DNA of 64,000 nucleotides from Gracilinema caldarium (GTDB lineage: Bacteria; Spirochaetota; Spirochaetia; Treponematales; Breznakiellaceae). The notes beneath the pieces are model-generated. The model saw only the letters and a list, made by a program, of their open reading frames with translations, was not told the DNA's origin and made no database searches. The position numbers and the translations under genes were made by a program. The stretch covers positions 48,992 to 112,991 of the forward strand of contig NZ_JAJUHW010000001.1 in NCBI RefSeq assembly GCF_029265695.1, read 5' to 3'. Shown in pieces: positions 1 to 50,423 of the stretch; positions within the stretch are counted from its first letter, which is position 1; each line of letters begins with the position of its first letter.

Positions 1-969
1 AAGTCGGTCCGGATTATTTGCGATCATGGCAGGGCTGCTACCTTTATTCTAGGGGATCCCAAAGGTGTGAGCCCCTCCAACGTGGGAGCAGGCTATGTGC
101 TCCGCAGGCTCATACGCCGTGCGGTTCGGCATGGCCGTAAGCTCGGTATCGAAACACTGTTCCTTACCGAAATTGCCGAAGCGGTGGTCGAAAAATTTTC
201 AGCCCCCTATCCGGAGCTGGCGGAAAACCGCAGCCGGATCATGGAAGAGCTCCAGCAGGAAGAACAGAAGTTCCTGGAGACCTTGCAGAAAGGGGAACAT
301 GAGTTCGAAAAACTGCTTCCCAACCTGCTTAAGGATCCACGGAAAATTATATCTGGCCGCCTGGCCTTTAAGCTTTACGACACCTACGGTTTTCCCATCG
401 AACTTACGGAAGAACTGGCAGCTGAGCATGGCATGACCATTAACCGGGAAGAATTTGATGAGGCCTTTAAAAAGCACCAGGAACTCTCCCGGGCTGGCAG
501 CGAACAGGTCTTTAAGGGAGGCCTGGCGGACCACGGAGAACAGGCTGTTAAATACCATACGGCTACGCATCTGCTCCATAAGGCCCTCAGGATGGTTTTG
601 GGTGAGCATGTTGCCCAAAAGGGTTCCAACATTACTGCAGAACGGATGCGGTTTGACTTTTCCCATCCTTCCCCAATGACTGCCGAAGAGATTGCAAAGG
701 TTGAAGCAATCGTGAACGAGCAGATTAAGCGGGATTTGCCGGTCACTATGGAAATTATGTCATTAGAGGATGCCAAGGCTGCAGGGGCAATCGCCCTGTT
801 TGGCGAAAAGTACGAATCCCAGGTCAAGGTGTACACCATTGGAGACTTTTCTAAAGAAGTCTGTGGCGGACCCCATGTAGACCGGACTGGCAAGCTTGGC
901 ACCTTTAAGATACAGAAGGAACAATCTTCCTCCGCCGGTGTACGCCGGATCAGGGCTGTACTGGAGTAG
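1..969 (+). CDS. alaS: Alanine--tRNA ligase, 5'-truncated by window start; short form ending at the editing domain
   Basis: Frame open from base 1 (KSVRIICDHGRAATFILGD...PSNVGAGYVLRRLIRRA). AFKLYDTYGFP motif and editing motifs HTATHLL...CGGPH are present. Stop TAG 967-969. Confidence 0.97.
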   Translation, partial: KSVRIICDHGRAATFILGDPKGVSPSNVGAGYVLRRLIRRAVRHGRKLGIETLFLTEIAEAVVEKFSAPYPELAENRSRIMEELQQEEQKFLETLQKGEHEFEKLLPNLLKDPRKIISGRLAFKLYDTYGFPIELTEELAAEHGMTINREEFDEAFKKHQELSRAGSEQVFKGGLADHGEQAVKYHTATHLLHKALRMVLGEHVAQKGSNITAERMRFDFSHPSPMTAEEIAKVEAIVNEQIKRDLPVTMEIMSLEDAKAAGAIALFGEKYESQVKVYTIGDFSKEVCGGPHVDRTGKLGTFKIQKEQSSSAGVRRIRAVLE

Positions 970-1025
970 GGAATATTCCGTAACCTTTGAGCATCTGATA
1001 TATTCTATTTTTAAGAAGGATACAT

Positions 1026-2072
1026 ATGAAACGCAATGTACTTGTGATGCTTTTTACCCTTGCTGTGGCAGCCCTCGTTAGTGCCCAGGCCGATTTACAG
1101 TCCGTAGCTCTGGTAAAGTTAACCAAAACAGAGCCAATTACGGTTAAACAGCTTAAGGCAGAGGTTCAAAAAATCGAAGCCCAGACCGGAAAAGCCCTTA
1201 CCATTGATGAACGGAAACAGGTTCTTGATGTGATGATTAATGAGCGGCTTGCCCTGCAGGCTGCAGAACGGGACAAAGTAACGGTAAGCGATGCTGAAAT
1301 AAACCAGCAGCTGCAGCAAGCCAGAACTGCAATGGCCCAGAGCCTGGGCCGGCAGCCTACAGATGCTGAGTTCGAAGCGGCTATTAAGCAGCAAACCGGC
1401 ATGGACCTGGCCTCATATAAGGAACAGATGAAACGGCTCGTGACGGTTCAGAAATACCTCATGACAAAAAAGCAAGACCTTATAAATTCTATTAAAAAGC
1501 CGACCGAGAACGAAATTAAAAACTTTTACGAGCTCAATAAGGCAAAACTGGTGCGGCCCGATACGGTGCGGTTTTCCATGATTTTCGTCCCCTATGGCAG
1601 CGATGCAGCTTCCAAGGCCAAGGCCAAAGAACTGGCAGATAAGCTTGTGAAAGACATTGGGACAAGCCCATCCAAATTTGATGAAGCGGTCCTCCGGGGT
1701 CAGTCCCCATCTGCGGGCTATCAGGCCGGCGACGGCGGCTATCTGCCGAAAACCGCAGAAGCCCAGAGTATTGTTGGCCCTGATTTCATGAACGTAGCCT
1801 TTTCTCTCAAACAGGGAGAAGTCTCCCGGCTCATCGAAAATACAAAAGGGTACCAGATAATCAAAATTACCGAAGCCTACAGTCAAAAAAACCTGGACCT
1901 GGATGATATTTATCAGTTGGGCAACAAGATTACCGTGCGGGAGTATATTGGCAATCTCCTTTATCAGCAGAATCAGCAGGCCATTTTTGATAAGGCAAGT
2001 AAAGAGCTTGTTGATGAACTCCGCGCTGGCGGCAAATCTTTCCAGATTTTTGAAAAGAACATAGCATATTAA
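1026..2072 (+). CDS. Exported SurA/PrsA-like peptidyl-prolyl isomerase/chaperone
   Basis: Signal peptide, SurA-N-like helical region, rotamase-like segment (GDGGYL...FSLKQGEVSRLIENTKGYQIIK). Confidence 0.8.
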   Translation: MKRNVLVMLFTLAVAALVSAQADLQSVALVKLTKTEPITVKQLKAEVQKIEAQTGKALTIDERKQVLDVMINERLALQAAERDKVTVSDAEINQQLQQARTAMAQSLGRQPTDAEFEAAIKQQTGMDLASYKEQMKRLVTVQKYLMTKKQDLINSIKKPTENEIKNFYELNKAKLVRPDTVRFSMIFVPYGSDAASKAKAKELADKLVKDIGTSPSKFDEAVLRGQSPSAGYQAGDGGYLPKTAEAQSIVGPDFMNVAFSLKQGEVSRLIENTKGYQIIKITEAYSQKNLDLDDIYQLGNKITVREYIGNLLYQQNQQAIFDKASKELVDELRAGGKSFQIFEKNIAY

Positions 2073-2074
2073 TT

Positions 2075-2506
2075 ATGGCATCGAGACGAAAAGCGCGTAT
2101 ATTGGCTTTCCAGGCCCTCTTTTCCTGGGAAGCCTCGGGGGCAAGTGTTCAGGAACTGGTCAGTTTTTCCTGGTTAGACCAGGAAAAACGAGATGCCCTT
2201 GATGAAGGAACCGCTGTATTCGCACGGTTGTTGATTGCGGGAACTATAGAAAACATTGAAACCATCGACAGCCTTATTAAGGCTCATTTAAAGAACTGGA
2301 ACTTTGATCGTCTTAATAGGGTCGATTTGGCAATTATGCGTATGAGTGTCTATTCACTCAAATACCAAGAGGATATTCCAGCCTCCATAGTAATAGACGA
2401 AGCCATAGATATTGCAAAAGAATATGGTACCGACGATTCGTTCCGTTTTATTAACGGTGTATTGGATGCAATTAAAAAGGATATTCAGGGTGGTTTAGGA
2501 GTATGA
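2075..2506 (+). CDS. nusB: Transcription antitermination factor NusB
   Basis: RRKARILAFQALF; RLNRVDLAIMR; IDEAIDIAKEYG...FINGVLD. Confidence 0.97.
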   Translation: MASRRKARILAFQALFSWEASGASVQELVSFSWLDQEKRDALDEGTAVFARLLIAGTIENIETIDSLIKAHLKNWNFDRLNRVDLAIMRMSVYSLKYQEDIPASIVIDEAIDIAKEYGTDDSFRFINGVLDAIKKDIQGGLGV

Positions 2507-4143
2507 CGAGCAAGAACCGGTTCCCTATTCGGTTCGCTGTCAATCCTCGGCTTCTTATTATCGGCCTCGGCTGCGCTGCGGTCCTGGCCGCTCTTCTTAC
2601 TTTTATCATAAAACGCCCCCAAAGCCTCACTAATAAACTCGATTTTACCTATCTGGATAGCCAAATAGATGCCTGGGATGGCGTGTCCAGCCCTGATAAG
2701 ATTTTAAAAACCCTTCAGAGCTATGAAAAAGAACAGATTGGATCAGCTACCGCATTGTCCCTTCTCAAACGGTACCGACTTTTAGCTCTTAAAGGTCTCC
2801 GATACGATGTCTATACTGCGAAAGCCCGGGATTTTTCCGAGAAATATCCCAAACAAGATGCAATCTTGTCTTTATTTCTGGATAGCTGCCTTCTTGTGCC
2901 CCATGAATTGTCGCAAGCTGAGATAGAGTTTTTACTCCATCTGGATCCCCGGGATCTTTCGCCTGAAAATGCTTCGCTCCTCCTGCTCGTGCTGCATAAA
3001 GCCCATTTTATAGATACTCCTCAGCGGTTTTTGCAGATTCCCTATGGAATAGAATTGCTGAACCAGCTGCTGGTTAATGCAGACCCTCCTCGTTCATCGA
3101 TTTTTACAAACAATGTAGTTGTGGCGCTCATACTTTCCGGAAATATTCAGGCTGCTCTCGCCGCAGGAAAAGGTGCGGTAGGAAAAACGATGAGTTTTGA
3201 TGCCCTCTATTCCAATCTCTTGTATGATTTTGGTTCCCCGGAAGAAGCTGCCCTTTTATTCCGTCAACTCTATGAGCAGGACGGAAACTACAAGTACCTG
3301 CTTCATGAAGCGGATGCTTTTATAAAAAGTGGAGATATTCAAAAAGCCCGCGGTGTCTGGAAAGAACTTGAACCGAACCTTTCCGGTCCAGCATTGCTTA
3401 CGGTGCTGTATAACCAAGGATCCACGAGCGCTGATCCTGCTGAACGGAAATACTATTTTTTGCGTTTATTAAACATTGATAAATTCCATGAATATGGTGT
3501 TTTGCAGTACGCTAGGCTCTTGCCTGAAACAGAAGCCCTGAGCTTTTTGCGCTCCTTACCGATCTACAAAACCCATGCTCTCTTGCAGCTCGAAGCACTC
3601 AGGTATGAATATTCTGGAGCACACCGGCCCTTTGTACCCGGATCTTTGTGGATCTTACTGAACAGATTTTCTCAGGATGAACGGCTCTATCACTGGGGAG
3701 CATGGTATCTTTACACTATAGGAAATATAGAGGAGCTTGAGAAACTGCTTGCCATGGCTAAAGAAAAGGGAATACAGCATCCATCCCTTGTCTTATATCC
3801 CGCTTTGCGTGCTCTGGAACAGGGCAAGCTTGAAACAGGCCAGCAGCTGCTTTCTTCATTTCCAGGTACGGAGTGGTATATTCCCGCTAACCTGGGGAAG
3901 CTGTACCAAAAAACCTACAGAATCTTAAACGCCATTGAGATGTATCAATTAGCCGCTTCATTAGCTCAAGATACAAAAATTGAATCCCGCCTGTATCATC
4001 AGATTGGAGATTGTTTCCTTTCATTGGATAAATTGTCTGAAGCCCGCAGAAGTTATGAATATGCGATCCAGCTGAATCCTGGTAATATGGAAGCCGTATT
4101 TGCACTCCAGCAGCTGAATGCTCGCATGATAAATCCGCGCTGA
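2503..4143 (+). CDS. Membrane-anchored TPR-repeat protein
   Basis: N-terminal TM segment; C-terminal TPR-like repeats (YHQIGDCFLSLDKLSEARRSYEYAIQLNP); ATGA overlap with nusB. Confidence 0.75.
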   Translation: MTSKNRFPIRFAVNPRLLIIGLGCAAVLAALLTFIIKRPQSLTNKLDFTYLDSQIDAWDGVSSPDKILKTLQSYEKEQIGSATALSLLKRYRLLALKGLRYDVYTAKARDFSEKYPKQDAILSLFLDSCLLVPHELSQAEIEFLLHLDPRDLSPENASLLLLVLHKAHFIDTPQRFLQIPYGIELLNQLLVNADPPRSSIFTNNVVVALILSGNIQAALAAGKGAVGKTMSFDALYSNLLYDFGSPEEAALLFRQLYEQDGNYKYLLHEADAFIKSGDIQKARGVWKELEPNLSGPALLTVLYNQGSTSADPAERKYYFLRLLNIDKFHEYGVLQYARLLPETEALSFLRSLPIYKTHALLQLEALRYEYSGAHRPFVPGSLWILLNRFSQDERLYHWGAWYLYTIGNIEELEKLLAMAKEKGIQHPSLVLYPALRALEQGKLETGQQLLSSFPGTEWYIPANLGKLYQKTYRILNAIEMYQLAASLAQDTKIESRLYHQIGDCFLSLDKLSEARRSYEYAIQLNPGNMEAVFALQQLNARMINPR

Positions 4144-4158
4144 TGCTGATTTATTGAT

Positions 4159-4195
4159 AAAAAAAGGGGATGTCCTTAACTTTATGGACATCCCT
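4159..4195 (-). terminator. Intrinsic terminator for groES (GGGGATGTCC family)
   Basis: Stem GGGATGTCC 4167-4175 / GGACATCCC 4186-4194, 10-nt loop, A7 tract 4159-4165 (U tract on minus strand). Confidence 0.85.
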
Positions 4196-4227
4196 CCGTA
4201 GTACCACTTTTAAAAGTCAGTTGCTTA

Positions 4228-4494
4228 CTATTCGATAATGGCAATGATATCGGACATTTTCAGAATAAGGTATTCAACACCATCAACCTTAATCTGGGTG
4301 CCGGCATATTTGTCATACATGACCTTCTGCCCCACAGCTACTTTGATAATATCCTTGTTATCACCAATAGCGGTAACGACACCGGTCTGGGTCTTTTCTT
4401 GGGCAGTATCGGGAATAATGATACCCCCAGCAGTTTTGGATTCGGTTTTTTCAAGCTTTACCATGACACGGTCGTCTAAGGGTTTTACAGTCAT
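4228..4494 (-). CDS. groES: Co-chaperonin GroES (no adjacent groEL)
   Basis: KPLDDRVMV...KTAGGIIIPDTAQEK...ILKMSDIIAII; GGAGG SD. Confidence 0.97.
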   Translation of the reverse strand: MTVKPLDDRVMVKLEKTESKTAGGIIIPDTAQEKTQTGVVTAIGDNKDIIKVAVGQKVMYDKYAGTQIKVDGVEYLILKMSDIIAIIE

Positions 4495-4546
4495 ATAATT
4501 CCTCCTGAGGTACAGATATTGTTGTAGTAATGGATATTACGATTTA

Positions 4547-4576
4547 AATATACGGAAAAAGACCAGCAAAGGTCAA
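4547..4576 (-). promoter_or_regulatory. Sigma70-type promoter for groES
   Basis: Minus strand TTGACC-N18-TATATT. Confidence 0.55.
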
Positions 4577-4599
4577 CAAAAATCGGCGGTAACTTGAAT

Positions 4600-4628
4600 T
4601 TGCTTATTAAGAAAATTATTGGTATCTT
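4600..4628 (+). promoter_or_regulatory. Sigma70-type promoter, probably giving a leaderless transcript
   Basis: TTGCTT-N17-TATCTT with extended TG; GTG start 6 nt downstream. Confidence 0.55.
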
Positions 4629-4634
4629 ATCCTT

Positions 4635-5342
4635 GTGGTGAGTATGAAAGACTGGTTTGGACCCTTTGAACGGGGCCGAAAAGCCCTGGCAAAACATAAA
4701 ACAGCCTATGCAATTAAGGAATTCAAGAAAGCTGCAGAACTCTGTCCGGTCCGGGCATCTAAAGAGTTGGCTCGAATCCTTTATTACCTTGGACTCGCAT
4801 TGGACCGTTCTGGTCAGCCAGGCCTGGCGACGAAAAGCTGGGTAAATGCCAGAAAGCTCGTTCGTTCTGGTCCCTTTGTGTCTTTGTATTCACGGTGGAT
4901 TAACGGCTATGGCATGCGGAAAAGCGAAAAACCAATCTTGGATGATTACCGGGCGTTTCAGTCTGTACAGGTCTTCAGATATTTAAGTAAACGGGGATCA
5001 GGACGATTTTGCTCCGAAGCTGAACGGGATGTAGTCTATGCAGTAATAGACGATGCCTGGAAACTTATATCGAAAAGTAAGGTGCTTTATTCCCTTTCGT
5101 GTACTGAAAAATTAGCAATTTTTAGGAAAGCTAAGTTAGATTTTCCCTACCTGTACATAGAAGATGTTTTCCAAACCGATTGTGATCCTGTAATAGGTAA
5201 TTTTAGGCAAAAACATTCAGTCTCTTCTGTTCGCTTAACCGATGACGATCCCTGTTCCTGCGGTTCAGGGCTGCCCCGCAGAATGTGCTGCGGAAGGCTC
5301 TATTCGTGTACAGAACAGGAGTATGCCAACCCAAGGCACTAG
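4635..5342 (+). CDS. TPR-like N-terminus plus C-terminal SEC-C metal-binding motif protein
   Basis: ARILYYLGLALDRSGQPGLA (TPR-like); DDDPCSCGSGLPRRMCCGR (SEC-C motif). Confidence 0.7.
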   Translation: MVSMKDWFGPFERGRKALAKHKTAYAIKEFKKAAELCPVRASKELARILYYLGLALDRSGQPGLATKSWVNARKLVRSGPFVSLYSRWINGYGMRKSEKPILDDYRAFQSVQVFRYLSKRGSGRFCSEAERDVVYAVIDDAWKLISKSKVLYSLSCTEKLAIFRKAKLDFPYLYIEDVFQTDCDPVIGNFRQKHSVSSVRLTDDDPCSCGSGLPRRMCCGRLYSCTEQEYANPRH

Positions 5343-5537
5343 ATGTCTAAAAATGTGTCATTAGGAACCAATAATTTACGAAATTTCAGGCCCTGTATCA
5401 TTTAGACCCACATTTTTGCATGCCGTTGCAAATAATGCTATCCATTTCTGTTGTGCACCGAAATCTGCATTCATTTAAGTATTTATCATATAAATAGATA
5501 TTTAAAATATTTTTGATGCTTTTTGTTTCTTATTGCT

Positions 5538-5553
5538 TGGCATGATAATTGCT
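5538..5553 (+). promoter_or_regulatory. Sigma54 (RpoN) -24/-12 promoter
   Basis: TGGCATG-ATAA-TTGCT fits TGGCACG-N4-TTGCW with exact GG-N10-GC spacing; 30 nt upstream of the sigma factor ATG. Confidence 0.7.
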
Positions 5554-5583
5554 AAATATATGTACCTATTCAGGAGGTACAAT

Positions 5584-6468
5584 ATGACCGCTACAAAAAA
5601 AACAGCTCTTTCAAAACAGTCAAAAAAGGAAACCATGAACGATGAAAATGTTCTTTCCATATACCTCAAAGAAATAAACAAGATTCCCCTCTTGACCAGA
5701 GAAGAGGAAGATGCAATAGCCCGTGCTGCAGCTAAGGGCGACAAGGCTGCCAGGGACAAGCTTGCCGCTGCCAATCTGCGCTTTGTGGTTAATGTGGCTA
5801 AAAAGTATCAGAATCAGGGCCTATCTCTTTCGGATTTAATCAGCGAAGGCAATATTGGGCTTTTGAATGCCATTGAACGGTACGATGTGGATAAGGGGTA
5901 TCACTTTATATCCTATGCGGTATGGTGGATAAGGCAGGCAATCCTTAAAGCGATTTGCGAAAAATCCCGTATGATCCGGCTGCCCCTAAATCGGGCCAAT
6001 GAACTTGTACAGATTGAAAAGACCCGCAAGGTACTCCAGGGCGGGGCATCAAGCGATGCGGAAATTAACGAGGTTGCCCGGCTGCTTGATATGGATCCTT
6101 CACATGTGGCGGATCTCATCAATATAAGCCGTGACCTGGTGTCCTTAGAAAGTCCAGTGTATACCGAAAAAGATTCTTCTATTTTGGGCGATTTCCTGGA
6201 AGATACGACCTACAAAGCTCCGGAAGATGCGGCGATCGAGTCTGCATTACGGGAAGACATTGAAATGGTGCTTCAGACCCTTTCAGAAAAGGAAGCGGAA
6301 ATCATTCGGTACCGCTTTGGTCTTAACGGAACGGCTCCCATGTCCCTCAAAGAAATCGGGGAAAGGTTTCATCTTACTAAAGAAAGGATTCGGCAGATTG
6401 AAAAAAAAGCCCTTAAAAGGCTCCAGCATCCTGCACGGAAACAGTATCTGGAAAGTTACGTAGCATAA
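5584..6468 (+). CDS. Short sigma70-family (RpoD/RpoS-like) sigma factor lacking region 1.1
   Basis: SIYLKEINKIPLL (1.2), ANLRFVVNVAKKY, DLISEGNIGL, SYAVWWIRQAI (2.x), TKERIRQIEKKAL (4.2); GGAGG SD 5573-5577. Confidence 0.9.
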   Translation: MTATKKTALSKQSKKETMNDENVLSIYLKEINKIPLLTREEEDAIARAAAKGDKAARDKLAAANLRFVVNVAKKYQNQGLSLSDLISEGNIGLLNAIERYDVDKGYHFISYAVWWIRQAILKAICEKSRMIRLPLNRANELVQIEKTRKVLQGGASSDAEINEVARLLDMDPSHVADLINISRDLVSLESPVYTEKDSSILGDFLEDTTYKAPEDAAIESALREDIEMVLQTLSEKEAEIIRYRFGLNGTAPMSLKEIGERFHLTKERIRQIEKKALKRLQHPARKQYLESYVA

Positions 6469-6492
6469 GCTCCGGTGAGTTTGAATTAAGCA

Positions 6493-6531
6493 GGGGGATG
6501 ACCAAGAACCATACACGGACATCCCCCTTTT
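6493..6531 (+). terminator. Intrinsic terminator (GGGGATGTCC family variant) between the convergent sigma factor and asnA genes
   Basis: GGGGGATGACC / GGACATCCCCC followed by TTTT. Confidence 0.8.
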
Positions 6532-6534
6532 ATT

Positions 6535-7569
6535 TTACATGAGGTGTACACCCTGTTTTTTGCAGAGATCTAAAGTTTCCTGGGGCCAGACCGAAGCCTG
6601 TACTTCTCCGATATGGGCCTTGCGCAAAAAGAACATACAGAGCCGGGATTGGCCGATTCCGCCACCGATCGTCTGGGGGAATTCGCCCGCTAAGAGCCGG
6701 CTGTGCCAGTACAGTTTAGTACGGTCTTCTGTGTTTGTCAGTGCAAGCTGGCGTTTCATGCTTTCCGCATCTACCCGGATACCCATGGATGAAAGTTCAA
6801 GCGAATCCTGACGCACCGGATCCCAGACTATAATATCACCGTTTAAGCCCGCAGTCCCATCTTCGGCGATGGTAGTCCAGTCATCATAGTCGGGAGCCCG
6901 GCCTCCATGTATGGTCCCATCGGATAGCTTGCCGCCGATACCGATGATAAAAATGGCGCCGTATTCCCGTGCCAGTTCCCGTTCCCGCTCCTGGGGACTC
7001 AGTTTGGGGTACCGGCGGAGGGCTTCTTCTGAGTGAATAAAGGTAATATGTTCAGGAAGGACCGGCGTTATTTCTTCGTAGTGCTCACTGACTACAAATT
7101 CGGTACGTTTTAGCACTTCGTAGATTTTTTCTACTATCTTTTTTAGAAACGCCCGGTTCCGCTGGCCTTGTTTCATCACCAGTTCCCAGTCCCACTGATC
7201 AACGTATATGGAATGGATTGCATCAATGTCATCATCGGGACGCAGGGCATTCATGTCTGTATATAGGCCGGTTCCTTCCTTGTAGCCGTAATCAGCCAGC
7301 GCCATGCGTTTCCATTTTGCGAGAGACTGGACAACTTCCATCTCCTTGTCTCCAAGGTTTTTAACAGGGAATCGCACCGGTCGTTCTATACCATTGAGGT
7401 CATCATTGATACCCGAACCACGGGGTACAAAGAGGGGAGAGGTTACCCGGGATAGCTGCAGTTCCGCGGAAAGGTTGCGTTCAAAAAAATCTTTTACAAG
7501 CTTAATTGCCTGTTCGGTCTGTTTAAGACTTAATAAGGGTTTATAGTTTTTGGGCAGAATCTCTGGCAT
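6535..7569 (-). CDS. asnA: Aspartate--ammonia ligase
   Basis: EVVQSLAKWKR, GLYTDMNALRPD, HSIYVDQWDWE, TIGGGIGQSRL. Confidence 0.97.
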   Translation of the reverse strand: MPEILPKNYKPLLSLKQTEQAIKLVKDFFERNLSAELQLSRVTSPLFVPRGSGINDDLNGIERPVRFPVKNLGDKEMEVVQSLAKWKRMALADYGYKEGTGLYTDMNALRPDDDIDAIHSIYVDQWDWELVMKQGQRNRAFLKKIVEKIYEVLKRTEFVVSEHYEEITPVLPEHITFIHSEEALRRYPKLSPQERERELAREYGAIFIIGIGGKLSDGTIHGGRAPDYDDWTTIAEDGTAGLNGDIIVWDPVRQDSLELSSMGIRVDAESMKRQLALTNTEDRTKLYWHSRLLAGEFPQTIGGGIGQSRLCMFFLRKAHIGEVQASVWPQETLDLCKKQGVHLM

Positions 7570-7659
7570 GTAAGTACTCCTTGGGCTCTACTGTACCAGT
7601 TGGGGCTAAGGGCCGCAATAGAGCAATATAAAAACCTAATGCCCACTGAAAGGCCAAGT

Positions 7660-9063
7660 TTACTTTTCTCCTGCAATACCTTTCATAATCAAAGAAAGCC
7701 GGTAGATTGATTCATCGATAGAGCGCGGTTCAATACAGACATAGCTCAGGCGGATGTGGGACTCATCATGAAAAGCCTCTCCGCTTGTGATCCGGATCCC
7801 CTGTTCCAGGGCTTTGTAATATAATGCGGTGCTTTTAAATTCTGGAGGGAGTCTTACCCAGAGGTGCAGTCCTCCGTCGCAGAAATGGGCGGTACAGCCT
7901 AAGGGTTCCAGGTGTGTTTGCACCGCCTGGTACATAATATTATGCAAGTCTCGGAAATGTACACGCAATTCTTCCATGCGGCTTTTGTGGTAATTCCGCT
8001 GCAAATAGAGATCCACCGTCCGCTGCATAAAGCCATCGGTGGCAATGTCGGAACTGCGTTTTGCCTGTTCATACAGGGACTGCAAGGCTGGGGGAATAAT
8101 CAGAAGCCCAAGCCTGAGCCCGGGGAATAAAACCTTGGAAAAACCTCGGACATAGAGTACCCGGTTATTTTTATCTATCGATTTGAGGGTAATCGGCTGA
8201 GGAGGCTGATGAAAATAGAGATCCGATAGGAGGTCATCTTCTAAAATATAAAAATCGTATTGATCTGCCAATTCAAGTAGCCGATGCAGTCTTTCTGCAC
8301 TCCAGCTATAGGTCGTGGGGGTCTGGAAACGGCTCTGTATATACAAAAGCCGCGGCCTTGTATGTATCAGTCGTTGTTCCAGGACTTCCATATCCATGCC
8401 CTCTTCGTGGATTTCTAAGGAAATAGTATCCGCAGCGCGGGACCAGAATGCCCCGAGGGCACCCCGATAGGTGGGCTGTTCTACAATGACCCGATCTCCA
8501 GGATGCAAAAGTGCCTTGGCGGTGAGATCTATACCCTGTTGGGCACCGGATACGACCCAGATAGTGGAAGGATCAGCCTGAATCTGCAGCGTTTCTGCCG
8601 CATAACGGGAGAGGGTCTTGCGGAATGGTTCCCACCCCGCAATGTTTTGGTATTCAAAGGCCCACCCCGCATCACGCTCAATGACTTCCAGGACGATTTC
8701 CTTAAATTGTTCCACCGGAAACATGTCAGGCGAGGGGGTTCCCGCAGCCAGGTCTATTAATGGCCCTTCTTTTGCATGAAATAATGGTTCTGTATATTCA
8801 GCCTCGATTGGAGACCGTTTTCGCTGAGCGTACACGCCGCTTCCCGGCCGAGACCGGACCCAGCCTTCCTGTTCAAGAATGCGGTATGCAGCCACGGCGG
8901 TCGCAGGATTTACCTGCAGAGCCCGGGATAGCCGGCGGATAGAGGGAAGCCGTTCCCCATCTATGACGTCTCCCCGGTGTATCGCTTGTCTGAGCCGGTC
9001 TGCGAGCTGCAGATACAAGGGTGTTTCGCTGTTGGCATCGAATACCAGGGCGCCGTAATTCAT
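7660..9063 (-). CDS. pdxR: MocR/GabR-family PLP-dependent regulator, PdxR-like
   Basis: GntR wHTH (PLYLQL...LPSIRRLS...[13 protein letters not shown]) fused to an aminotransferase-like domain ([13 protein letters not shown]). Divergent from pdxST. Start moved to ATG 9063 behind GGGAGGA. Confidence 0.85.
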
Positions 9064-9072
9064 ATTCCTCCC

Positions 9073-9116
9073 AACTGTATCGGTACTGTATTGACAGTTA
9101 CTGTTTATTGGATACA
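9073..9116. promoter_or_regulatory. Putative PdxR operator repeats overlapping the pdxS promoter
   Basis: ACTGTAT direct repeats 9074-9080 and 9085-9091, inverted ACAGT 9094-9098, ACTGT 9100-9104; TTGACA at 9091-9096. Confidence 0.6.
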
Positions 9117-9140
9117 TATTCTATCCAGGGAGTGAACAAA

Positions 9141-10019
9141 ATGGAAGACAGATTTGCGATTAATCGAGACTTGGCCCGTATGCTTAAGGGCGGAGTTATT
9201 ATGGATGTGGTCAATGTGGAACAGGCTAAAATTGCCGAAGCTGCAGGGGCCGTGGCAGTAATGGCCCTGGAGCGGGTTCCCTCAGATATTCGAAAACAGG
9301 GCGGTGTGGCCCGGATGAGCGATCCAGCCATGATTACGGAGATTAAAAATGCGGTCAGTATTCCGGTTATGGCAAAATGCCGGATCGGACACTTTATAGA
9401 AGCGAGAATTCTTGAGGCCCTGGGTATCGATTATATTGATGAAAGTGAAGTGCTTACCCCGGCCGATGAGTCATATCATATCGATAAAAAGGCTTTCCGT
9501 ATTCCCTTTGTGTGCGGTGCCCGGGATCTGGGCGAGGCCCTCAGGCGTATTGGCGAAGGGGCTGCCATGATCCGGACCAAGGGCGAAGCCGGCACGGGCA
9601 ACGTGGTTGAGGCTGTGCGTCATTTACGAACCGTGAACGACGGCATCCGCCGGCTTCAGGGCCTGCCACGGGAAGAGCTTATGACTGCCGCCAAAGAACT
9701 GGGGGCCCCCTATGACCTGGTCTGCTACGTGGCCGAGAACGGAAAGCTTCCGGTAGTTAACTTTGCTGCTGGCGGCGTTGCAACGCCGGCGGATGCCGCC
9801 CTGATGATGGCCCTTGGGGCTGACGGGGTTTTTGTAGGCTCTGGTATCTTTAAGTCTGCGGATCCCGAAAAGCGGGCAAAGGCTATTGTTAAGGCCGTAA
9901 CCTACTGGCAGGATGCTCAGGTGCTCGCGGAGGTTTCCGCAGGGCTGGGAGAACCCATGTCCGGCATTGATCTCCGGGACCTGGCTCCCCAGGAACGACT
10001 TGCGGAGCGGGGCTGGTAA
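9141..10019 (+). CDS. pdxS: Pyridoxal 5'-phosphate synthase lyase subunit
   Basis: [46 protein letters not shown]. Confidence 0.98.
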
Positions 10020-10606
10020 TGGTGCGGATTGGGGTTTTAGCCCTGCAGGGCGGGGTGGCCGAACATGCGGATATGCTCGCCCGCATTCCCGGTGTGGAGC
10101 CGGTTTGGGTTCGAACCGCCGCGGATTTAGAGTCCACCGATGCCCTCATTATTCCCGGCGGTGAAAGTACCGCGGTGGGGACTATCCTGGCCCATGATCC
10201 GCGGGGACAGGCATTGCGGGAACTCCTAGTTACCCGAATACAAAAGGGCTTCCCAGTGTGGGGTACCTGTATGGGGGCCATACTCCTTGCCCGCAATATC
10301 AGAAACGATCACCGGCGGCACCTGGCGGTAATGGATATCGAGGTTCATCGAAATGCCTATGGGAGTCAGCTGGACAGTTTTACCGTTTCTGAACCAATCG
10401 AAGGACTCGAGGGCGGCCCCTTCCCCATGGTTTTTATCCGGGCTCCGGTTATATCTGATGTTGGCGCGAGGGTTCAGGTGCTTGCCCGTCATGGAGGACA
10501 GATTGTGGCTTGCAGGCAGCAGAACCTATTGGCATCGACCTTTCATCCTGAGCTTACCGAGGATGATCGGTTTCACCGCTATTTTGTCTCCTTTGTAAAA
10601 AATTAA
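10019..10606 (+). CDS. pdxT: PLP synthase glutaminase subunit
   Basis: GVLALQG, IIPGGEST, WGTCMG, FIRAP, TFHPEL; TAATG coupling with pdxS. Confidence 0.97.
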   Translation: MVRIGVLALQGGVAEHADMLARIPGVEPVWVRTAADLESTDALIIPGGESTAVGTILAHDPRGQALRELLVTRIQKGFPVWGTCMGAILLARNIRNDHRRHLAVMDIEVHRNAYGSQLDSFTVSEPIEGLEGGPFPMVFIRAPVISDVGARVQVLARHGGQIVACRQQNLLASTFHPELTEDDRFHRYFVSFVKN

Positions 10607-10613
10607 TTGTAAT

Positions 10614-10661
10614 ACTAGTTCCGCACGAGCATCGGGTCTGTGCGGAATTCGCGGAACTAGT
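10614..10661. repeat. Nested inverted repeat (three arms) downstream of pdxT
   Basis: ACTAGTTCCGC 10614-10624 / GCGGAACTAGT 10651-10661; alternative pairing TTCCGCAC 10619-10626 / GTGCGGAA 10640-10647. Confidence 0.7.
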
Positions 10662-10723
10662 GGAACTTTTAAAAAGCAGCTTGAAATTTGCCTTTTTCAT
10701 TGTTATCTGTAATAGTTAAACCA

Positions 10724-12481
10724 ATGAAAACTATAAAAAATCGAAAAGTAGGTACCTTTACTATTATCCTCCTTATGCTATTCTTTTCGATTTTTATACC
10801 CCTTTCGCTTACTTTGGTGTTGTGGCGTGTCATGTACTGGGGGTCAACAACGAGAGCCCTTGGCCTCTCGCAAATCGAAAGCACCTTGAACGGGGCTACC
10901 CAGCTTTTAAACATGTACAGCCCCCTTACCGGAGGCATCCCCGATACCGAAGGCTTTGCCCAGCTTAAACGACTTCTCAACGGTCCTATTGTCAGTTTCC
11001 GTTTTGGCCCATTTACGCCAGAAGATTTACAGATTTTTTTGCAGGATTTTTTAGAGACAAAATCTCTATGTGTATCTGATACACACATTCTTGATGATTC
11101 TGGCCGGGAAATAGGGAAGCAAAATCCCAGCGGAGAGTGGGTACTGACCGCAGCTCATTGGGTGAGCAAGGGGGCATATAAATGGGACTCTCTTTTGGAG
11201 GAGCAGCGCCGGCGCTATGCAAATGCAAAAAATTATGTACAAGTTTCCCGGGATATTTCTAAGGCCGTGGTAAGGCTCGGCAACAGCGGTTACCTTTGGG
11301 CCATCAGTGCGGCAACGAACCCGGATATGCATTGTTTTGAACTAATTCATCCCCAATTGGAAGGAATTGATATAACTTACAGCACGAATAGCAAAAAGAT
11401 AAGGGTAGGTTTTGAAATCGCATCCCTCAGGGGCTTGTTATTAAGCCCAGAGGCAGACAAAATTGCCTCCATGAGCGATATTGTTCGCTTTGATTACAGT
11501 TGGAAAAATCCGGAAGATCTGAAGGAACGGAGCAAAATAGTCCTCATGAGGTATATAAAAAGTCATAATTTTGTTCTCGCAGCGGGCTTGTACGAAAATG
11601 AGTACTTTATGCCAGCCCAGGCTGCTGAACAGCTTTTTATATTCCTTATCTTTTCTATGGCAGTTCTTGTGTTTGCCTTCATGTTCTTGTTCTTTCGGAA
11701 AATTGCCCGGAGCCTTGTAGTTCTGTCTAATTATGCTGAAATGACTGCCCGATCCGATGGCACGATTCATCGGCTTTCACCTACTGGCTTCCGTGAAATG
11801 GACAAGCTTTCTGAAAGCTTTGCTAGAATGGAAGAGGAGATCCTTAAAAGGGAGACCAATCTGGTTCACGAACTCCAGGAAAAGGATGCGCTTATCCAGG
11901 AAGTACATCATCGGGTTAAAAACAATCTTTCGGTCCTCATAAGCATGATTTCTCTGCAAATACAGCAGGTACAATCGGAAGATGCCCTTGATGCCCTTAA
12001 TCAATTACAGGGCCGGGTCAATTCTATGGCGTTGGTGTACCAACAGCTATTTGGAGCTAATCAATATACACACCTTCCTTTTGATGAATACGTTCGGGGC
12101 ATACTTGCCTATTACCAGAGCGGATATAACGGAGGAAGGATCGAGCGGAAAGAATCTCTGAATCATTGCGAAATTGAACTAGAACGGGCAGTCCCGTTGG
12201 GACTCATTGTAAACGAACTTGTATCCAACGCATTTACCCACGGTATTCCGCATAATCGTTTACCCAAGATAGAAATAGGTCTTACAACTCATGACAAGGG
12301 GATAGAGTTTTTTGTGGAAGACAATGGCAATGGGTACCAGAATCATGACAAAGAAAAAACAGGAATGCTTTTAGTTCGGGCCCTCTGTACACAATTAAAG
12401 GCTGAGCTTCTTATTGAAAGTCCATTAGATGCAGAGGGTGGCTGTCGGGTAACGGTTAAGGTTCCCTACAAGGCAACCTGA
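10724..12481 (+). CDS. Membrane sensor histidine kinase, HisKA_2 family
   Basis: Two TM segments, Cache-like periplasmic part, H-box EVHHRVKNNL, N-box NELVSNAFTHG, G1 EDNGNG; start placed at ATG 10724. Confidence 0.88.
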   Translation: MKTIKNRKVGTFTIILLMLFFSIFIPLSLTLVLWRVMYWGSTTRALGLSQIESTLNGATQLLNMYSPLTGGIPDTEGFAQLKRLLNGPIVSFRFGPFTPEDLQIFLQDFLETKSLCVSDTHILDDSGREIGKQNPSGEWVLTAAHWVSKGAYKWDSLLEEQRRRYANAKNYVQVSRDISKAVVRLGNSGYLWAISAATNPDMHCFELIHPQLEGIDITYSTNSKKIRVGFEIASLRGLLLSPEADKIASMSDIVRFDYSWKNPEDLKERSKIVLMRYIKSHNFVLAAGLYENEYFMPAQAAEQLFIFLIFSMAVLVFAFMFLFFRKIARSLVVLSNYAEMTARSDGTIHRLSPTGFREMDKLSESFARMEEEILKRETNLVHELQEKDALIQEVHHRVKNNLSVLISMISLQIQQVQSEDALDALNQLQGRVNSMALVYQQLFGANQYTHLPFDEYVRGILAYYQSGYNGGRIERKESLNHCEIELERAVPLGLIVNELVSNAFTHGIPHNRLPKIEIGLTTHDKGIEFFVEDNGNGYQNHDKEKTGMLLVRALCTQLKAELLIESPLDAEGGCRVTVKVPYKAT

Positions 12482-14568
12482 GCAAATGGCGGGGCCCGTT
12501 CCAAAACCTGTCGAATAACCAGATGTTCTGGAGCAAGGAGCCCCGGATCCCGTTCTAGGATACCAAAAGCCTCTTCCCGGACTACTTCGAGCAGCGATGA
12601 ATCCTCTACGGGATCTGCAAGACCGAGATTAATATAGCCCGATTGTACTGTTCCTGCGATGTGTCCGGGACCCCGCAGTTTAAGATCCTCTTCTGCAATA
12701 GTAAAACCGTCGCTATATTCTAACATTATCTTAAGACGCTGCTTCCCGTCCCCAGTAAGCCGATCGCTATAAACTAAAAAACAATAGGATTGATCCTGTC
12801 CCCGGCCGACACGGCCCCGAAGCTGGTGAAGCGCAGAAAGGCCAAAACGTTCAGCATGTTCTATTACCATACAGGTCGCATTTGGGACATCAACACCGAC
12901 TTCGACAACGCTGGTAGCAACAAGAATATGTATGTCTCCTGTGCGGAAGGCTGTCATGGTTTTGCGTTTTTCATCTTCGTCGATCCGGGAATGTACCAGG
13001 GCTACGCGGTACTCTGGAAAAATTGATGATGCGAGTCTCTTTGCCATGGCCTGGGCGTTTTTTATGTTTCCACTGTCCTGTGAGTCTTCATCTCCTTCGA
13101 TAAGGGGATAGACAAAATAGGCCTGATGGCCTGCGGCGAGTTCTTGTCGAACAAAGTCATAGACTTTTTTTTCGTTAGGCTGCTTAGCCAAATGGGTTTT
13201 TACGGTTTTACGGCCCGGTGGTACATCTTTTATGACCGAAACATCCAGGTCCCCAAACACGGTCAATGCCAAGGTTCGAGGAATGGGCGTAGCGCTCATC
13301 ATAAGGAGGTCCGGATGGTCTCCTTTAGCCATAATGGCACTCCGCTGGAGGACCCCGAAACGGTGCTGTTCATCGATAATGACAAGTCTGAGCTTGTGGT
13401 AGCGGACATCTGCGGAAAAGAGGGTATGGGTGCCGATTACGATATGTATGTGGCCTGCTGCTAAAGCTTTAAGGAGGGCGCTGCGGCCCGCTGCCTTGAT
13501 ATTTCCCGTTAAAAAGGCCACTGAAATACCGAGGGGCTCCAAGAGCCGCGCGGCATTTTCCGCATGCTGGCGGGCTAGTAGTTCCGTCGGTACTAGTATA
13601 GCTGTCTGGCCGCCATATTCTAGGGCCCGAAGGGCCGCCATAAACGAAACAAGTGTTTTGCCGGATCCCACGTCTCCCTGTAATAGCCGCGCCATTGGAT
13701 GAGGGCCTGACATATCCTGATTGATTTCATGTATGGCATTCAATTGGCCGCCGGTCAGTTTAAATGGGAGCCGCTCTGCCAGGCGCTGCTGCAATGGGCT
13801 TAGTCCTAGGCTTTGTCTATTGTCGAGATTTGGCAATGCTGGCTCCTGCCGCCTGCATTCTTGGCGCCGTTCCAAAGCTCTGCGACCAATAAGTACTTCA
13901 AGATAAAAGAGTTCTTCGAATTTGATGCGCCGTACTGCTGCTTCCAGTTCATCTCGGCTTTTAGGGAAGTGAATAGCATGCAGGGCTGCACTTTTAGACA
14001 ATAGTCCATATTTTTTAAGAACCGGCTCCGGCAGTTCTTCTTCCAGATTTTTTCCGTATATGTGGAGTGCCTGATACATGAGCCGACGTAGTATTTTTTG
14101 AGATAACCCAGCACTGAGCGGATAGATTGGCAGAAATGGAAACTCTATGGAAGTGCGTGCCTGTTCAGCATTTTCTATTTCAAAATTGGTCGATTGAAGA
14201 CACCCATACCTATAGGAGAATTGTCCTAAAATAATATATTGTTTTCCGACAACCAGTTGTTTTTCGAGGAATGGGCGATTAAAACAGATAAGCTCTGCTC
14301 GACCTGTTTCATCTTCAATATGGACTTTGAGGGTCTTTTTAGGATAACCGAACCATTCATGGGCGAGCACCCGGGCGATAGTATAGACCTGTCGTTCCTG
14401 GTTCCACTGGGAAAGGCTTACAAAATGGCTGCGGTCTTCCCAGTCCCGGGGAAAATAACTCAAGAGAGCGGCAATATCGGAAATACCGAGCCGTGCTAAA
14501 ATTTGGCTGGTCTGAGATCCTGCCCCTTTGAGTGTGTTGATGGAAGCCCTTAGCTCGTTAAGAAACAA
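12466..14568 (-). CDS. recG: ATP-dependent DNA helicase RecG
   Basis: LLQGDVGSGKT, IIDEQHRFG, MSATPIPRT, LHQLRGRVGRG, DLKLRGPG. Confidence 0.97.
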   Translation of the reverse strand: MFLNELRASINTLKGAGSQTSQILARLGISDIAALLSYFPRDWEDRSHFVSLSQWNQERQVYTIARVLAHEWFGYPKKTLKVHIEDETGRAELICFNRPFLEKQLVVGKQYIILGQFSYRYGCLQSTNFEIENAEQARTSIEFPFLPIYPLSAGLSQKILRRLMYQALHIYGKNLEEELPEPVLKKYGLLSKSAALHAIHFPKSRDELEAAVRRIKFEELFYLEVLIGRRALERRQECRRQEPALPNLDNRQSLGLSPLQQRLAERLPFKLTGGQLNAIHEINQDMSGPHPMARLLQGDVGSGKTLVSFMAALRALEYGGQTAILVPTELLARQHAENAARLLEPLGISVAFLTGNIKAAGRSALLKALAAGHIHIVIGTHTLFSADVRYHKLRLVIIDEQHRFGVLQRSAIMAKGDHPDLLMMSATPIPRTLALTVFGDLDVSVIKDVPPGRKTVKTHLAKQPNEKKVYDFVRQELAAGHQAYFVYPLIEGDEDSQDSGNIKNAQAMAKRLASSIFPEYRVALVHSRIDEDEKRKTMTAFRTGDIHILVATSVVEVGVDVPNATCMVIEHAERFGLSALHQLRGRVGRGQDQSYCFLVYSDRLTGDGKQRLKIMLEYSDGFTIAEEDLKLRGPGHIAGTVQSGYINLGLADPVEDSSLLEVVREEAFGILERDPGLLAPEHLVIRQVLERAPPFAQVAL

Positions 14569-14589
14569 CGTGATTCCTTACAACAAAAT

Positions 14590-15180
14590 TTAAAAGGGGA
14601 GCCGCACCAACAGGTTGGAAATAAGACTTACCAGTATGCCTCCTGCAATACGGATGGCAAGGAGTACGATGACGGTGGTTAAAATGCCTGTTTTGTAAGT
14701 GACAAGCCGATCACGGAATATAAGGCGGTTTACCCGATATAGAAGCGGTTTTGAGAGAGCGTCCACAGAACGCCAGATTGGGTGGACATTATTGCTTCCA
14801 AGTATATAGGCAATTAACCTCACGACAAGTATTACTATAAAGAAACTGATTACAAAGGCAACGGCGGACCAGATGCTGGAAAGGAGCATGGACAGGATGA
14901 TCCCTACGGTAATACGGCCGTAGACTGCAATGGTTAAAAAAATATTGTTCGCTAAAGCAAGCACCGCGAGGGCCGCTAGGGGAGAAAAATCGAGCTGTTC
15001 TGTACGCAGCTGGGGAAAACGGCGAAACCAGTTTAAATATGGATCGGTGACCCTGCTTATTAGGTCCGCTGAGCGTCCCAGCGAAAGGGGGCTGTCAAAC
15101 CAGCTGAGCATGATTCTTAAAAAGAGGAGAATCATATAGACAGTGGTGATTGAAGCCAGTATCCGCATCAGTATTCCCAT
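14590..15180 (-). CDS. YggT family membrane protein
   Basis: Two YggT-like repeats (SRVTDPYLNWFRRF...DFSPLAAL; DALSKPLLY); GGAGG SD. Confidence 0.85.
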   Translation of the reverse strand: MGILMRILASITTVYMILLFLRIMLSWFDSPLSLGRSADLISRVTDPYLNWFRRFPQLRTEQLDFSPLAALAVLALANNIFLTIAVYGRITVGIILSMLLSSIWSAVAFVISFFIVILVVRLIAYILGSNNVHPIWRSVDALSKPLLYRVNRLIFRDRLVTYKTGILTTVIVLLAIRIAGGILVSLISNLLVRLPF

Positions 15181-15298
15181 AGATCCCTCCTAAGCCAATT
15201 CTGTACTCATTAGCATACTAAAAGGCTTCCCATTAGTCGAGGCCCTTCTTTTCAGTAGACAAAAAATACTTTATATTTGAGCCAAAGAGGGTAGGCAC

Positions 15299-16546
15299 AT
15301 GTTGCAGATATTACATATTGATAGAAGTGAGTTATTCAGAAAAGTAATGCAGGAAATTATCCTCCGATGTGGTCACACCGTTCATAGTGTGGCTTCGAAA
15401 AAAGAAGCCCTTACATATCTCTCATCGAATATGGTTGATCTTGTCATTACAGCTTTGGAATTTGACGATGGAGACGCGGAATCTTTTATAATTGATATGC
15501 CCCAATCGGCTAAAAAAGAAATTCCCGTTGTGGTGGTAACCTCCAGTGATTCCTTGGAATTGCGGGAGCGCCTTTTTAGTCTAGGCGTGGTTGATTATAT
15601 TCTTAAATCAGACGTTAACGAAGAGCATTTTAAGCATTTCTTTGCTACCCTTTCTGCGGAGGACGAACTATCCCGCTTTATGCGGGACATGAAGGTAGCC
15701 ATATTGGATGATTCTCCAATCATACTCAAGGTTGTTCATCGCATTCTTGATATGAACGGTTTCCAGTTTATGGATTTTTTTGGTACACCCCAGGAATTGC
15801 TTAAAAGCGGTAAAAACTATGATTTGTATCTTATCGATATGGTGCTTCCCGAATTGACCGGCGACAAGGTTATAAAGGAACTCCGTTCTATGCAGCCAAA
15901 TGCTATCATTATTAGTATGTCCCAGTTTACCGGAGAAAAATCGATTTCAACGGTGCTCATGGCTGGGGCCGATGACTATATCCATAAGCCCTTTGATGCT
16001 GCGTCTCTTTTGTCCCGGATAAAGATCAATGTACGGTCCTATCAATATAAAAAACGGCTGGAACTCATGGCGGTTACTGACGGGCTTACGGGACTGTACA
16101 ACCACCGGTTTATTTTTGAAAGATTGGAAGAGGAAACAGCTAAAGTGAGCCGTTATGGCCGGCCCTTATCTGTCATTATGCTGGACATCGATAATTTTAA
16201 ACGGGTGAACGATACTTTTGGTCACCGTACAGGAGACGAGGTTATCCAATCGGTTGCCAATTCGATTATAGCGAATATCCGCAAAACTGATGTGGCGGGC
16301 CGCTATGGTGGAGAAGAATTCCTGGTGCTGCTTCCCGAAACTGACCTTAAAGCTGCCCAGGTAGTGGCAGAAAAGATAAGAAGTACCGTGAACCAGCTCA
16401 GTTTTGCTACCTCTGCCTTGTCCGTGACTATATCTGCTGGCGTAGCCGAAGCTGAGAAGGGCGAAACCTTCGAAGCTCTTATTACTCGGGTAGATACAAA
16501 ACTCTATCAAGCAAAGCGGAACGGAAAAAACAGGGTAGAAGGTTAA
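15299..16546 (+). CDS. PleD-like diguanylate cyclase (pseudo-REC, REC, GGDEF)
   Basis: Two receiver domains; TDGLTGLYNH; MLDIDNFK; I-site RKTD; GGEEF. Confidence 0.93.
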   Translation: MLQILHIDRSELFRKVMQEIILRCGHTVHSVASKKEALTYLSSNMVDLVITALEFDDGDAESFIIDMPQSAKKEIPVVVVTSSDSLELRERLFSLGVVDYILKSDVNEEHFKHFFATLSAEDELSRFMRDMKVAILDDSPIILKVVHRILDMNGFQFMDFFGTPQELLKSGKNYDLYLIDMVLPELTGDKVIKELRSMQPNAIIISMSQFTGEKSISTVLMAGADDYIHKPFDAASLLSRIKINVRSYQYKKRLELMAVTDGLTGLYNHRFIFERLEEETAKVSRYGRPLSVIMLDIDNFKRVNDTFGHRTGDEVIQSVANSIIANIRKTDVAGRYGGEEFLVLLPETDLKAAQVVAEKIRSTVNQLSFATSALSVTISAGVAEAEKGETFEALITRVDTKLYQAKRNGKNRVEG

Positions 16547-16551
16547 AGGCT

Positions 16552-16581
16552 CGCTGATAAAGGTTTATACCTTTGTCAGCG
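16552..16581. terminator. Hairpin between convergent DGC and dnaE genes
   Basis: CGCTGATAAAGGT-TTAT-ACCTTTGTCAGCG. Confidence 0.7.
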
Positions 16582-16600
16582 TCTTGCATCTCATAGGCTT

Positions 16601-48862: not shown

Positions 48863-48977
48863 TGGTACCCTCCTGGTTATAGTTTACTATAATAGTAAGA
48901 CATATTGCATTGCCATGAAAAGGGGGATCATAAAAAAATGCAACAAAAATGTGATAAATTTGTCTATAATTAACGAT

Positions 48978-50303: not shown

Positions 50304-50423
50304 AATTGGCTTTGCGATTGCTTGCGGATGCGTGCGGTTTCTTTAAAATCCCACGCATCCGCTGCGCCAAATCGCGGTTTTATTAGGTAGCTCTTTCAAA
50401 ACTCCCTGAGTTTTGAAAGAGCT
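50277..50423. repeat. Composite palindromic element (three hairpins), REP/BIME- or MITE-like
   Basis: 14-bp stem 50277-50290/50296-50309; 11-bp stem 50324-50334/50352-50362; 16-bp stem 50389-50404/50408-50423; the outer stems share TTTCAAAA/TTTTGAAA. Confidence 0.75.

Follow-up and report, generated by a model that had tools for sequence, protein, structure and literature searches.

A predicted enhancer-dependent sigma-54 promoter upstream of a short sigma-70-family gene in Gracilinema caldarium and its conservation among spirochaetes

Does the transcription of one sigma factor gene by another sigma factor, as in the RpoN-RpoS cascade, extend to spirochaetes other than Borrelia? In the Lyme-disease spirochaete this cascade acts as the central switch of virulence, and it is usually treated as a trait of Borrelia. 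The question is raised by a stretch of 64,000 nucleotides from Gracilinema caldarium (contig NZ_JAJUHW010000001.1, positions 48,992 to 112,991 of the forward strand; here called the window, whose own numbering we use throughout), in which a short gene of the sigma-70 family directly follows a motif of the sigma-54 type. We consider it highly probable that positions 5354-6535 form a self-contained regulatory unit, in which a canonical enhancer-dependent sigma-54 promoter drives the gene of a group-2-type sigma factor. The unit holds, in this order, two candidate activator sites, an AT-rich element that we propose to be a bend site, the -24/-12 promoter, a short leader with a Shine-Dalgarno sequence, the sigma gene, and a terminator:

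5354-5370, no strand: candidate upstream activator site 1 (UAS1), TGTGTCA-TTA-GGAACCA, from a weight matrix and conservation
5394-5410, no strand: candidate upstream activator site 2 (UAS2), TGTATCA-TTT-AGACCCA, from a weight matrix and conservation
5475-5501, no strand: AT-rich 25-bp palindrome, proposed bend site, from a motif in 78/80 sequences
5538-5553, + strand: sigma-54 (-24/-12) promoter element TGGCATGATAATTGCT, from an exact consensus match and conservation
5562-5566, + strand: predicted transcription start, placed by the geometry of sigma-54 promoters
5572-5577, + strand: Shine-Dalgarno AGGAGG, from the sequence
5584-6468, + strand: sigma-70-family gene, 294 aa, from Pfam and NCBIfam
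6487-6535, + strand: intrinsic terminator, a GGGGGAUG...CAUCCCCC hairpin followed by UUUUAUUU, from folding

The promoter element, TGGCATGATAATTGCT, reads TGGCATG-ATAA-TTGCT, with GG at 5539-5540, GC at 5551-5552 and a spacing of exactly N10, precisely where an earlier note on this DNA had placed it. By its letters it carries the core of a sigma-54 promoter (GG-N10-GC, YTGGCACG-N4-TTGCW). The note put it 30 nt before the ATG; measured from the C of the GC, the distance to the sigma ATG at 5584 is 32 nt. The motif TGGCAY-N5-TTGCW has one exact match in the window, which is TGGCATGATAATTGCT; 0.20 are expected by chance, at least one occurs in 19 of 100 shuffles, and with one mismatch allowed there are 7 promoter-like matches versus 4.8 expected. 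Taken by itself, TGGCATGATAATTGCT is within chance expectation, and its significance comes from its position before the gene and from its conservation. These frequencies, and the fact that rpoN is not seen in the window, are what speaks for regarding TGGCAT-N5-TTGCT as a chance or non-promoter element and the gene as served by a sigma-70-type promoter that has escaped recognition.

Conservation upstream of orthologous sigma genes, which the earlier note had named as a check, decides this point. We scanned one genome per species and obtained 80 loci with orthologues 70-98% identical, from Treponema, Breznakiella homolactica, Marispirochaeta, Alkalispirochaeta, and many Spirochaetaceae and Spirochaetales metagenome-assembled genomes; upstream DNA is available for 79 of these loci and lacking for one. 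GG-N10-GC stands at the same place in 79/79. The pattern TGGYA-N7-TGCN has one match within ~130 nt of the sigma gene in 74 loci, and in 5 loci the element is slightly degenerate with GG-N10-GC kept (TTGGAAC..TTGCA, CCGGCAC..TTGCA, TAGGCAC..TTGC). From the end of the element to the start codon there are 18-62 nt (median 28), and nearly all loci have a GGAGG-type Shine-Dalgarno sequence within this interval. Once the sites are aligned on GG, positions that the search pattern does not demand prove to be conserved as well (T in 76/80, C in 78/80, Y in 80/80, R in 80/80, T in 71/80, and W in 80/80), giving the family logo T-T-GG-C-A-Y-R-N4-T-T-GC-W, with ~0 bits at the four spacer bases and in both flanks. 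Judged from these alignments, the information profile of the family is that of sigma-54 promoters.

Of the 79 sigma-upstream sites, 64 match the strict consensus, against 2 matches in everything else that these loci contain (1.56 Mb, both strands), an enrichment of ~3000-fold (0.81 vs 0.00027 per 210 nt). A Rectinema orthologue with 64% identity has the same promoter and the same upstream architecture. The genes of two unrelated short sigmas (47-50% identity) have no -24/-12 element before them, and one of the two has a TTGACA-type promoter instead. A chance origin of the element has to contend with this positional conservation, with an exactly sigma-54-like information profile, with the enrichment over background within the same loci, and with the canonical architecture found further upstream (below); we give it hardly any credence. 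The proposal of the earlier note, in which an alternative sigma of a spirochaete outside Borrelia is under a sigma-54 promoter, has strong support from comparative evidence.

A sigma-54-like motif with one mismatch, TGGCTTTGCGATTGCT, occurs elsewhere in the window (50307-50322), between the + strand ORFs 48915-50303 and 50453-51202. It is probably not functional, because the mismatch hits an A that is invariant in the sigma-upstream set.

A real sigma-54 promoter could still be the lesser of two, with the gene transcribed mainly by read-through or from an upstream sigma-70 promoter and the sigma-54 promoter in use only under special conditions. The non-coding stretch 5343-5583 separates the sigma ORF (best start ATG 5584) from the gene upstream of it:

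4635-5342, + strand: upstream gene, 235 aa, with TPR and a SEC-C-type motif, from the ORF list, Pfam and an orthologue

This gene is on the same strand as the sigma gene and syntenic with it in many loci, and there is no terminator-like structure between its end at 5342 and the promoter, so some read-through transcription is possible; a long rpoS transcript has reportedly been seen in Borrelia. Against a two-promoter arrangement, many loci have groES on the opposite strand upstream, which makes read-through impossible there, and their architecture is unchanged; moreover, a simple scan finds no sigma-70-type hexamer pair on the + strand of the intergenic region. On balance we think it improbable that the sigma-54 promoter plays this minor part.

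We return to the enhancer-dependent sigma-54 promoter as the principal one, and to the architecture that lies upstream of it. Right-anchoring of the upstream regions of the loci brings out conserved blocks, the most distal of which is a 17-bp quasi-palindrome, TGKGTCA-WWW-TGAYMCA (16 bits in an iterated position weight matrix from the 80 loci), that is present twice per locus. Among the 71 well-scoring loci, 64 space the two copies exactly 40 bp start to start and another 4 space them 41 bp; UAS1 and UAS2 of the window are likewise exactly 40 bp apart. Roughly half of the loci have the centre of the promoter-proximal copy 98-102 nt upstream of the GG, and the others have it at a greater distance; the window belongs with the latter, its centres being 137 nt (UAS2) and 177 nt (UAS1) upstream, where most loci have ~100 and ~140. 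The pair is the top match on either strand of the 64-kb window (29.4 and 33.2 bits; best of 50 shuffles, 19.4) and keeps this rank when the window and the two loci closest to it, L001 and L002, are left out of the matrix. UAS1, which starts ~10 nt after the stop codon of the upstream gene, is conserved in both relatives, and UAS2 is fully conserved there. In each of two related loci of 21 kb (L081 and L082), the pair occurs once only. Upstream activator sites typically lie 80-200 bp upstream and are often paired, and the predicted UAS pair has just this placement. It is these two palindromes, which the earlier note missed, that are the likely activator sites.

Some loci seem to have a third copy of the 17-bp palindrome 40 bp further upstream, or have two copies 80 bp apart (L081 at ~17139, L006, L011), which suggests, as far as sequence comparison goes, that the palindromes form arrays with a 40-bp period there.

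Nearer the promoter, 78 of the 80 sequences have the AT-rich palindrome, with the consensus TAAnTnnnTT-N7-AAnnnAnTTA (19.8 bits). In 50 of these 78 it is centred 35-41 nt before the GG; in the window this distance is 51 nt, and the copy there matches 11 of the 12 conserved positions. The conservation is in the outer arms and not in the centre, so that the element amounts to two inverted AA-N4-TTA half-sites, each resembling the core of the IHF consensus. Compared with the IHF site WATCAA-N4-TTR, the location between activator sites and promoter fits, but the sequence is symmetric where the E. coli consensus is asymmetric. Bend sites in classical sigma-54 promoters sit midway between the activator sites and the promoter, and we propose that the palindrome may be a bend site for a homodimer of the HU/IHF type. 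The 64-kb window contains no HU/IHF gene.

The three dyads that the earlier note had described within about 190 nt of non-coding upstream DNA are present exactly as written: TTTGCA-N6-TGCAAA (5415-5432), TGCA-N8-TGCA (5454-5469), and TATTTAT-N3-ATAAATA (5480-5496). The suggestion that they are activator or co-regulator sites is for the most part wrong, and the third alone lies inside a conserved element, the 25-bp palindrome. The first two are not conserved in a three-way alignment with L001 and L002, whose sigma proteins are 98% and 94% identical, and we reject them as regulator sites on that ground.

Which protein might bind the paired palindromes is suggested by gene neighbourhoods outside the window. 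In 7 of the 80 loci, the sigma gene is preceded at 4.5-5.4 kb, on its own strand, by a gene encoding a REC-Sigma54_activat-HTH_8 protein, which a gene for a PAS-domain histidine kinase in turn precedes and overlaps. The same pair of histidine kinase (HK) and enhancer-binding protein (EBP) genes precedes the sigma gene in L081 and L082, and the distance ranges over 4.5-8 kb in all nine loci. In NCBIfam, the two proteins are nearest to AtoS/AtoC, below cut-off; a comparative study places Borrelia Rrp2 in the AtoC class (PMC3162934). The activator family is 75-93% identical among its best 120 matches and thus as conserved as the sigma (70-98%). The gene order in L081 and L082 is murG-cvpA-holB-HK-EBP, dnaJ-like, lysC, asd, DinG-like helicase, groES, an optional SEC-C gene, sigma, ppdK, and the first five genes would appear to form an operon, since they overlap. 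We take the HK-EBP operon to encode the candidate activator.

The same murG-to-ppdK neighbourhood recurs in L081/L082 (about 6000-20000), L010, and L029; of this neighbourhood, no more than groES, the gene with SEC-C, and the sigma gene are still adjacent in the window. In L081 and L082, the paired palindromes and the -24/-12 element are confined to the DNA before the sigma gene, so that nothing points to an HK-EBP operon that regulates itself.

Even if the sigma-54 promoter is real, the palindromes may serve an enhancer-binding protein other than the neighbouring Hk2/Rrp2-like activator, and the AT-rich palindrome may be the operator of a co-activator or repressor of the BosR kind in place of a bend site. 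The window and most Treponema-type loci have no activator gene near the sigma gene; the HK-EBP operon is without an autoregulatory copy of the motif; the symmetry of the 25-bp element departs from the asymmetry of E. coli IHF sites; and BosR, a second regulator in Borrelia, binds AT-rich repeats beside the -24/-12 element (PMC3037356). These observations speak for other regulators. Against them, no activator other than that of the HK-EBP operon is seen in the neighbourhood, and its conservation equals that of the sigma; the AT-rich element is conserved in its outer arms, in agreement with two inverted AA-N4-TTR half-sites. The palindromes, for their part, share the 17-bp TG...CA geometry of NtrC-type sites, as these are generally known, and stand 100-140 bp upstream with a fixed spacing of 40 bp. 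We therefore hold a different set of regulators to be doubtful, though a serious candidate.

The candidate HK-EBP activator, the paired candidate enhancer and the proposed bend site together recall promoters of the NtrC type, such as glnAp2 and the IHF-assisted nifH and Pu. Such promoters have tandem 17-bp palindromes ~100-140 bp upstream, an intervening AT-rich bend site (here a proposed one), and a GG-N10-GC core, as the present family of loci does. They differ in their half-sites (TGCACCA/TGGTGCA, against TGKGTCA/TGAYMCA here), in the asymmetric WATCAA-N4-TTR that takes the place of the symmetric 25-bp element, and in their product, a metabolic enzyme and not a sigma factor. The features of the classical promoters in this comparison are established knowledge.

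The protein itself, at 294 aa, has the Pfam regions Sigma70_r1_2, r2, r3, and r4 and is without region 1.1, as the earlier note had read it; it also lacks the long non-conserved insert. It scores under every NCBIfam equivalog cut-off, both those for RpoD (287.7 bits, cut-off 555; 279 bits, cut-off 572) and those for proteobacterial RpoS (TIGR02394, 259.2 bits, cut-off 378.7; NF004207, 253.3 bits, cut-off 394). The nearest Protein Data Bank (PDB) chains are SigA of Firmicutes (240 bits), E. coli RpoD (203), and RpoS (188-191), and the protein aligns with the C-terminal ~270 residues of primary sigmas. Orthologues carry the generic database names 'RpoD/SigA' and 'primary sigma factor'. Because of the sub-cut-off scores, the PDB ranking, and the missing region 1.1, we classify it from sequence as a primary-like, group-2-type alternative sigma, distinct both from proteobacterial RpoS and from true primary sigmas. 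In alignments, its region 4.2 (ERIRQIE) matches that of housekeeping sigmas, region 2.4 reads WWIRQAILK, and the His/Glu positions of region 3.0 are Asn; we take the Leu of region 2.4 to fall where E. coli sigma-70 has Thr440. A housekeeping-like preference at -35 with an altered preference at the -10 or extended -10 element would be a reasonable reading of these residues.

The gene appears to be a single-gene unit ended by the terminator (-23.7 kcal/mol, z = -3.9; 0/200 shuffles fold as well), which faces a convergent gene:

6535-7569, - strand: asnA, from an AsnA Pfam match

Transcription is predicted to start ~12 nt after the C of the GC, near 5564, leaving a 5' untranslated region of ~20 nt. 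The predicted leader is unstructured and has no credible Rfam match to a known RNA element.

A perfect 7-bp dyad, TGTACCT-ATTCAGG-AGGTACA, covers the predicted start and the Shine-Dalgarno sequence (5561-5581). L001 and L002 have the same arms, and L001 differs by one base in the loop. An RNA that started near 5564 would be missing the greater part of the 5' arm and would have a weakly folding leader; the dyad may act as DNA or within a longer read-through RNA.

How the parts may work together can be sketched from the sequence. Sigma-54 RNA polymerase would bind TGGCAT-N5-TTGCT as a closed complex, while dimers of an NtrC-family response regulator (REC-AAA+-HTH) would occupy the two 17-bp palindromes 40 bp apart. 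Phosphorylation by the PAS-domain histidine kinase would lead the regulator to oligomerise, an IHF/HU-type protein would bend the AT-rich palindrome such that the activator meets the polymerase, and ATP hydrolysis would open the promoter near 5564. The new sigma, with its housekeeping-like region 4.2 and altered regions 2.4 and 3.0, might then redirect RNA polymerase to a regulon of its own. We infer that it is sigma-54 and this HK-EBP activator that act at the promoter, and the bending role and the start site are inferred in the same way.

Several observations, beside the chance frequency of the promoter motif and the open path for read-through described above, weigh against this picture. Six-frame motif scans find neither a GAFTGA-type AAA+ activator nor an RpoN box in the 64-kb window, and no ORF with an RpoN box occurs in the 80 loci. 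The UAS copies of the window are among the weaker ones, the right half of UAS1 being degenerate. Neither tandem palindromes nor a -24/-12 element are found upstream of the HK-EBP operon in L081/L082, and the link between that activator and the palindromes is, as it stands, limited to neighbourhood and co-conservation. Finally, a search of sequencing runs with the window returned only metagenome DNA runs (at most 22% of words shared) and no RNA run, and among the runs queried there were no RNA runs for the loci of T. primitia ZAS-10 and Breznakiella.

Set beside known systems, the unit most resembles the Rrp2-RpoN-RpoS cascade. In B. burgdorferi, sigma-54 directly transcribes rpoS, and the gene of Rrp2 lies just after that of the Hk2 kinase (PMC1976401), for which a putative PAS domain has been described (PMC7649798). 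In both of these spirochaete systems, a near-consensus -24/-12 element directly precedes the gene of a short alternative sigma of the sigma-70 family, and an NtrC/AtoC-class REC-AAA+-HTH regulator gene follows a PAS kinase gene (here in the related loci). The difference is in the enhancer: Rrp2 of Borrelia is enhancer-independent, with no site within 238 bp upstream and with dispensable upstream DNA (PMC1976401), and rpoS also requires BosR, which binds next to the promoter (PMC3037356), whereas the present loci have two conserved palindromes at a fixed spacing of 40 bp and a bend-type element. By its sequence, the unit appears to work like the Borrelia cascade but to keep an enhancer.

In T. 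denticola, the Hpk2-Rrp2 pair (TDE1970/TDE1969) consists of a PAS kinase and a predicted sigma-54 enhancer-binding regulator; this Rrp2 'remains unstudied', its target not being known (PMC12070737). The domain architecture of the pair is that of the HK-EBP pair near the sigma gene in the related loci. Beyond the spirochaetes, control of a sigma-70-family factor by sigma-54 has also been proposed for enterobacterial rpoH, where a sigma-54 promoter is predicted, for a sigma-54-to-sigma-32 step, with no experimental evidence reported (PMC3162934); rpoH differs in encoding a group 3 heat-shock sigma and in having this promoter as one among several. Leptospira is without RpoS, according to a review (PMC12655853), and a proteome paper lists TP1012 of T. 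pallidum among the sigma factors, at 35 kDa. None of the best 120 homologues of the window sigma is a Borrelia protein, all of them being close relatives. Cluster look-ups among 150 representatives at 50% identity, AT-rich candidates included, gave one named organism, a Rectinema sp. metagenome-assembled genome, and nothing from Borrelia, T. pallidum or T. denticola. TP1012 may be an orthologue, to judge from its position next to groES.

With the same layout in about 80 other spirochaete species, a cascade from sigma-54 to a second sigma is probably widespread among spirochaetes. We are evenly divided on a broader proposal, namely that Hk2/Rrp2, sigma-54, and an alternative sigma form an ancestral module of the Spirochaetia that was enhancer-dependent from the beginning, that the enhancer-independent, BosR-assisted form of Borrelia is a reduced derivative, and that the target of Rrp2-type regulators in Treponema is this sigma gene. 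The module may have been kept almost unchanged by Treponema, Breznakiella, Rectinema, Marispirochaeta, Alkalispirochaeta, and other Spirochaetaceae, its ancestral form having two palindromes exactly 40 bp apart and a symmetric bend site suited to a homodimeric HU/IHF-type protein. We found no description of such a cascade outside Borrelia, including in Treponema and in free-living spirochaetes, in the literature searched, the coverage of which is incomplete, so that a prior description is possible. A cascade from sigma-54 to a sigma-70-family factor is known as such; what is new is its breadth across spirochaetes and the rigid geometry of the enhancer. The same wiring in about 80 spirochaete species supplies Rrp2-type regulators with a predicted target and a predicted binding site, offers an evolutionary reference for a Borrelia Rrp2 that works without an enhancer, and brings to light a sigma that is highly conserved across families (70-98%).

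Two smaller observations concern the neighbours and distant relatives of the sigma gene. The 235-aa protein encoded upstream has a weak Pfam match to TPR_2 and, at its C terminus, a SEC-C-type Cys motif, PCSCGSGLPRRMCCG (CSCGSG...CCG); its orthologue in L082 is annotated as SEC-C, and in many loci the regulatory region is immediately preceded by a gene end of the form CxCGSG...CCG. In a JGI metagenome contig of 306 kb (L085, positions 1-6843), a 280-aa sigma-70-family gene whose product is 50% identical to the window sigma has neighbours of archaeal type (Rpb7, Spt4, ribosomal proteins S24e and S27e, and a diphthamide-synthase-like gene), which could reflect either horizontal acquisition by an archaeon or an assembly chimera.

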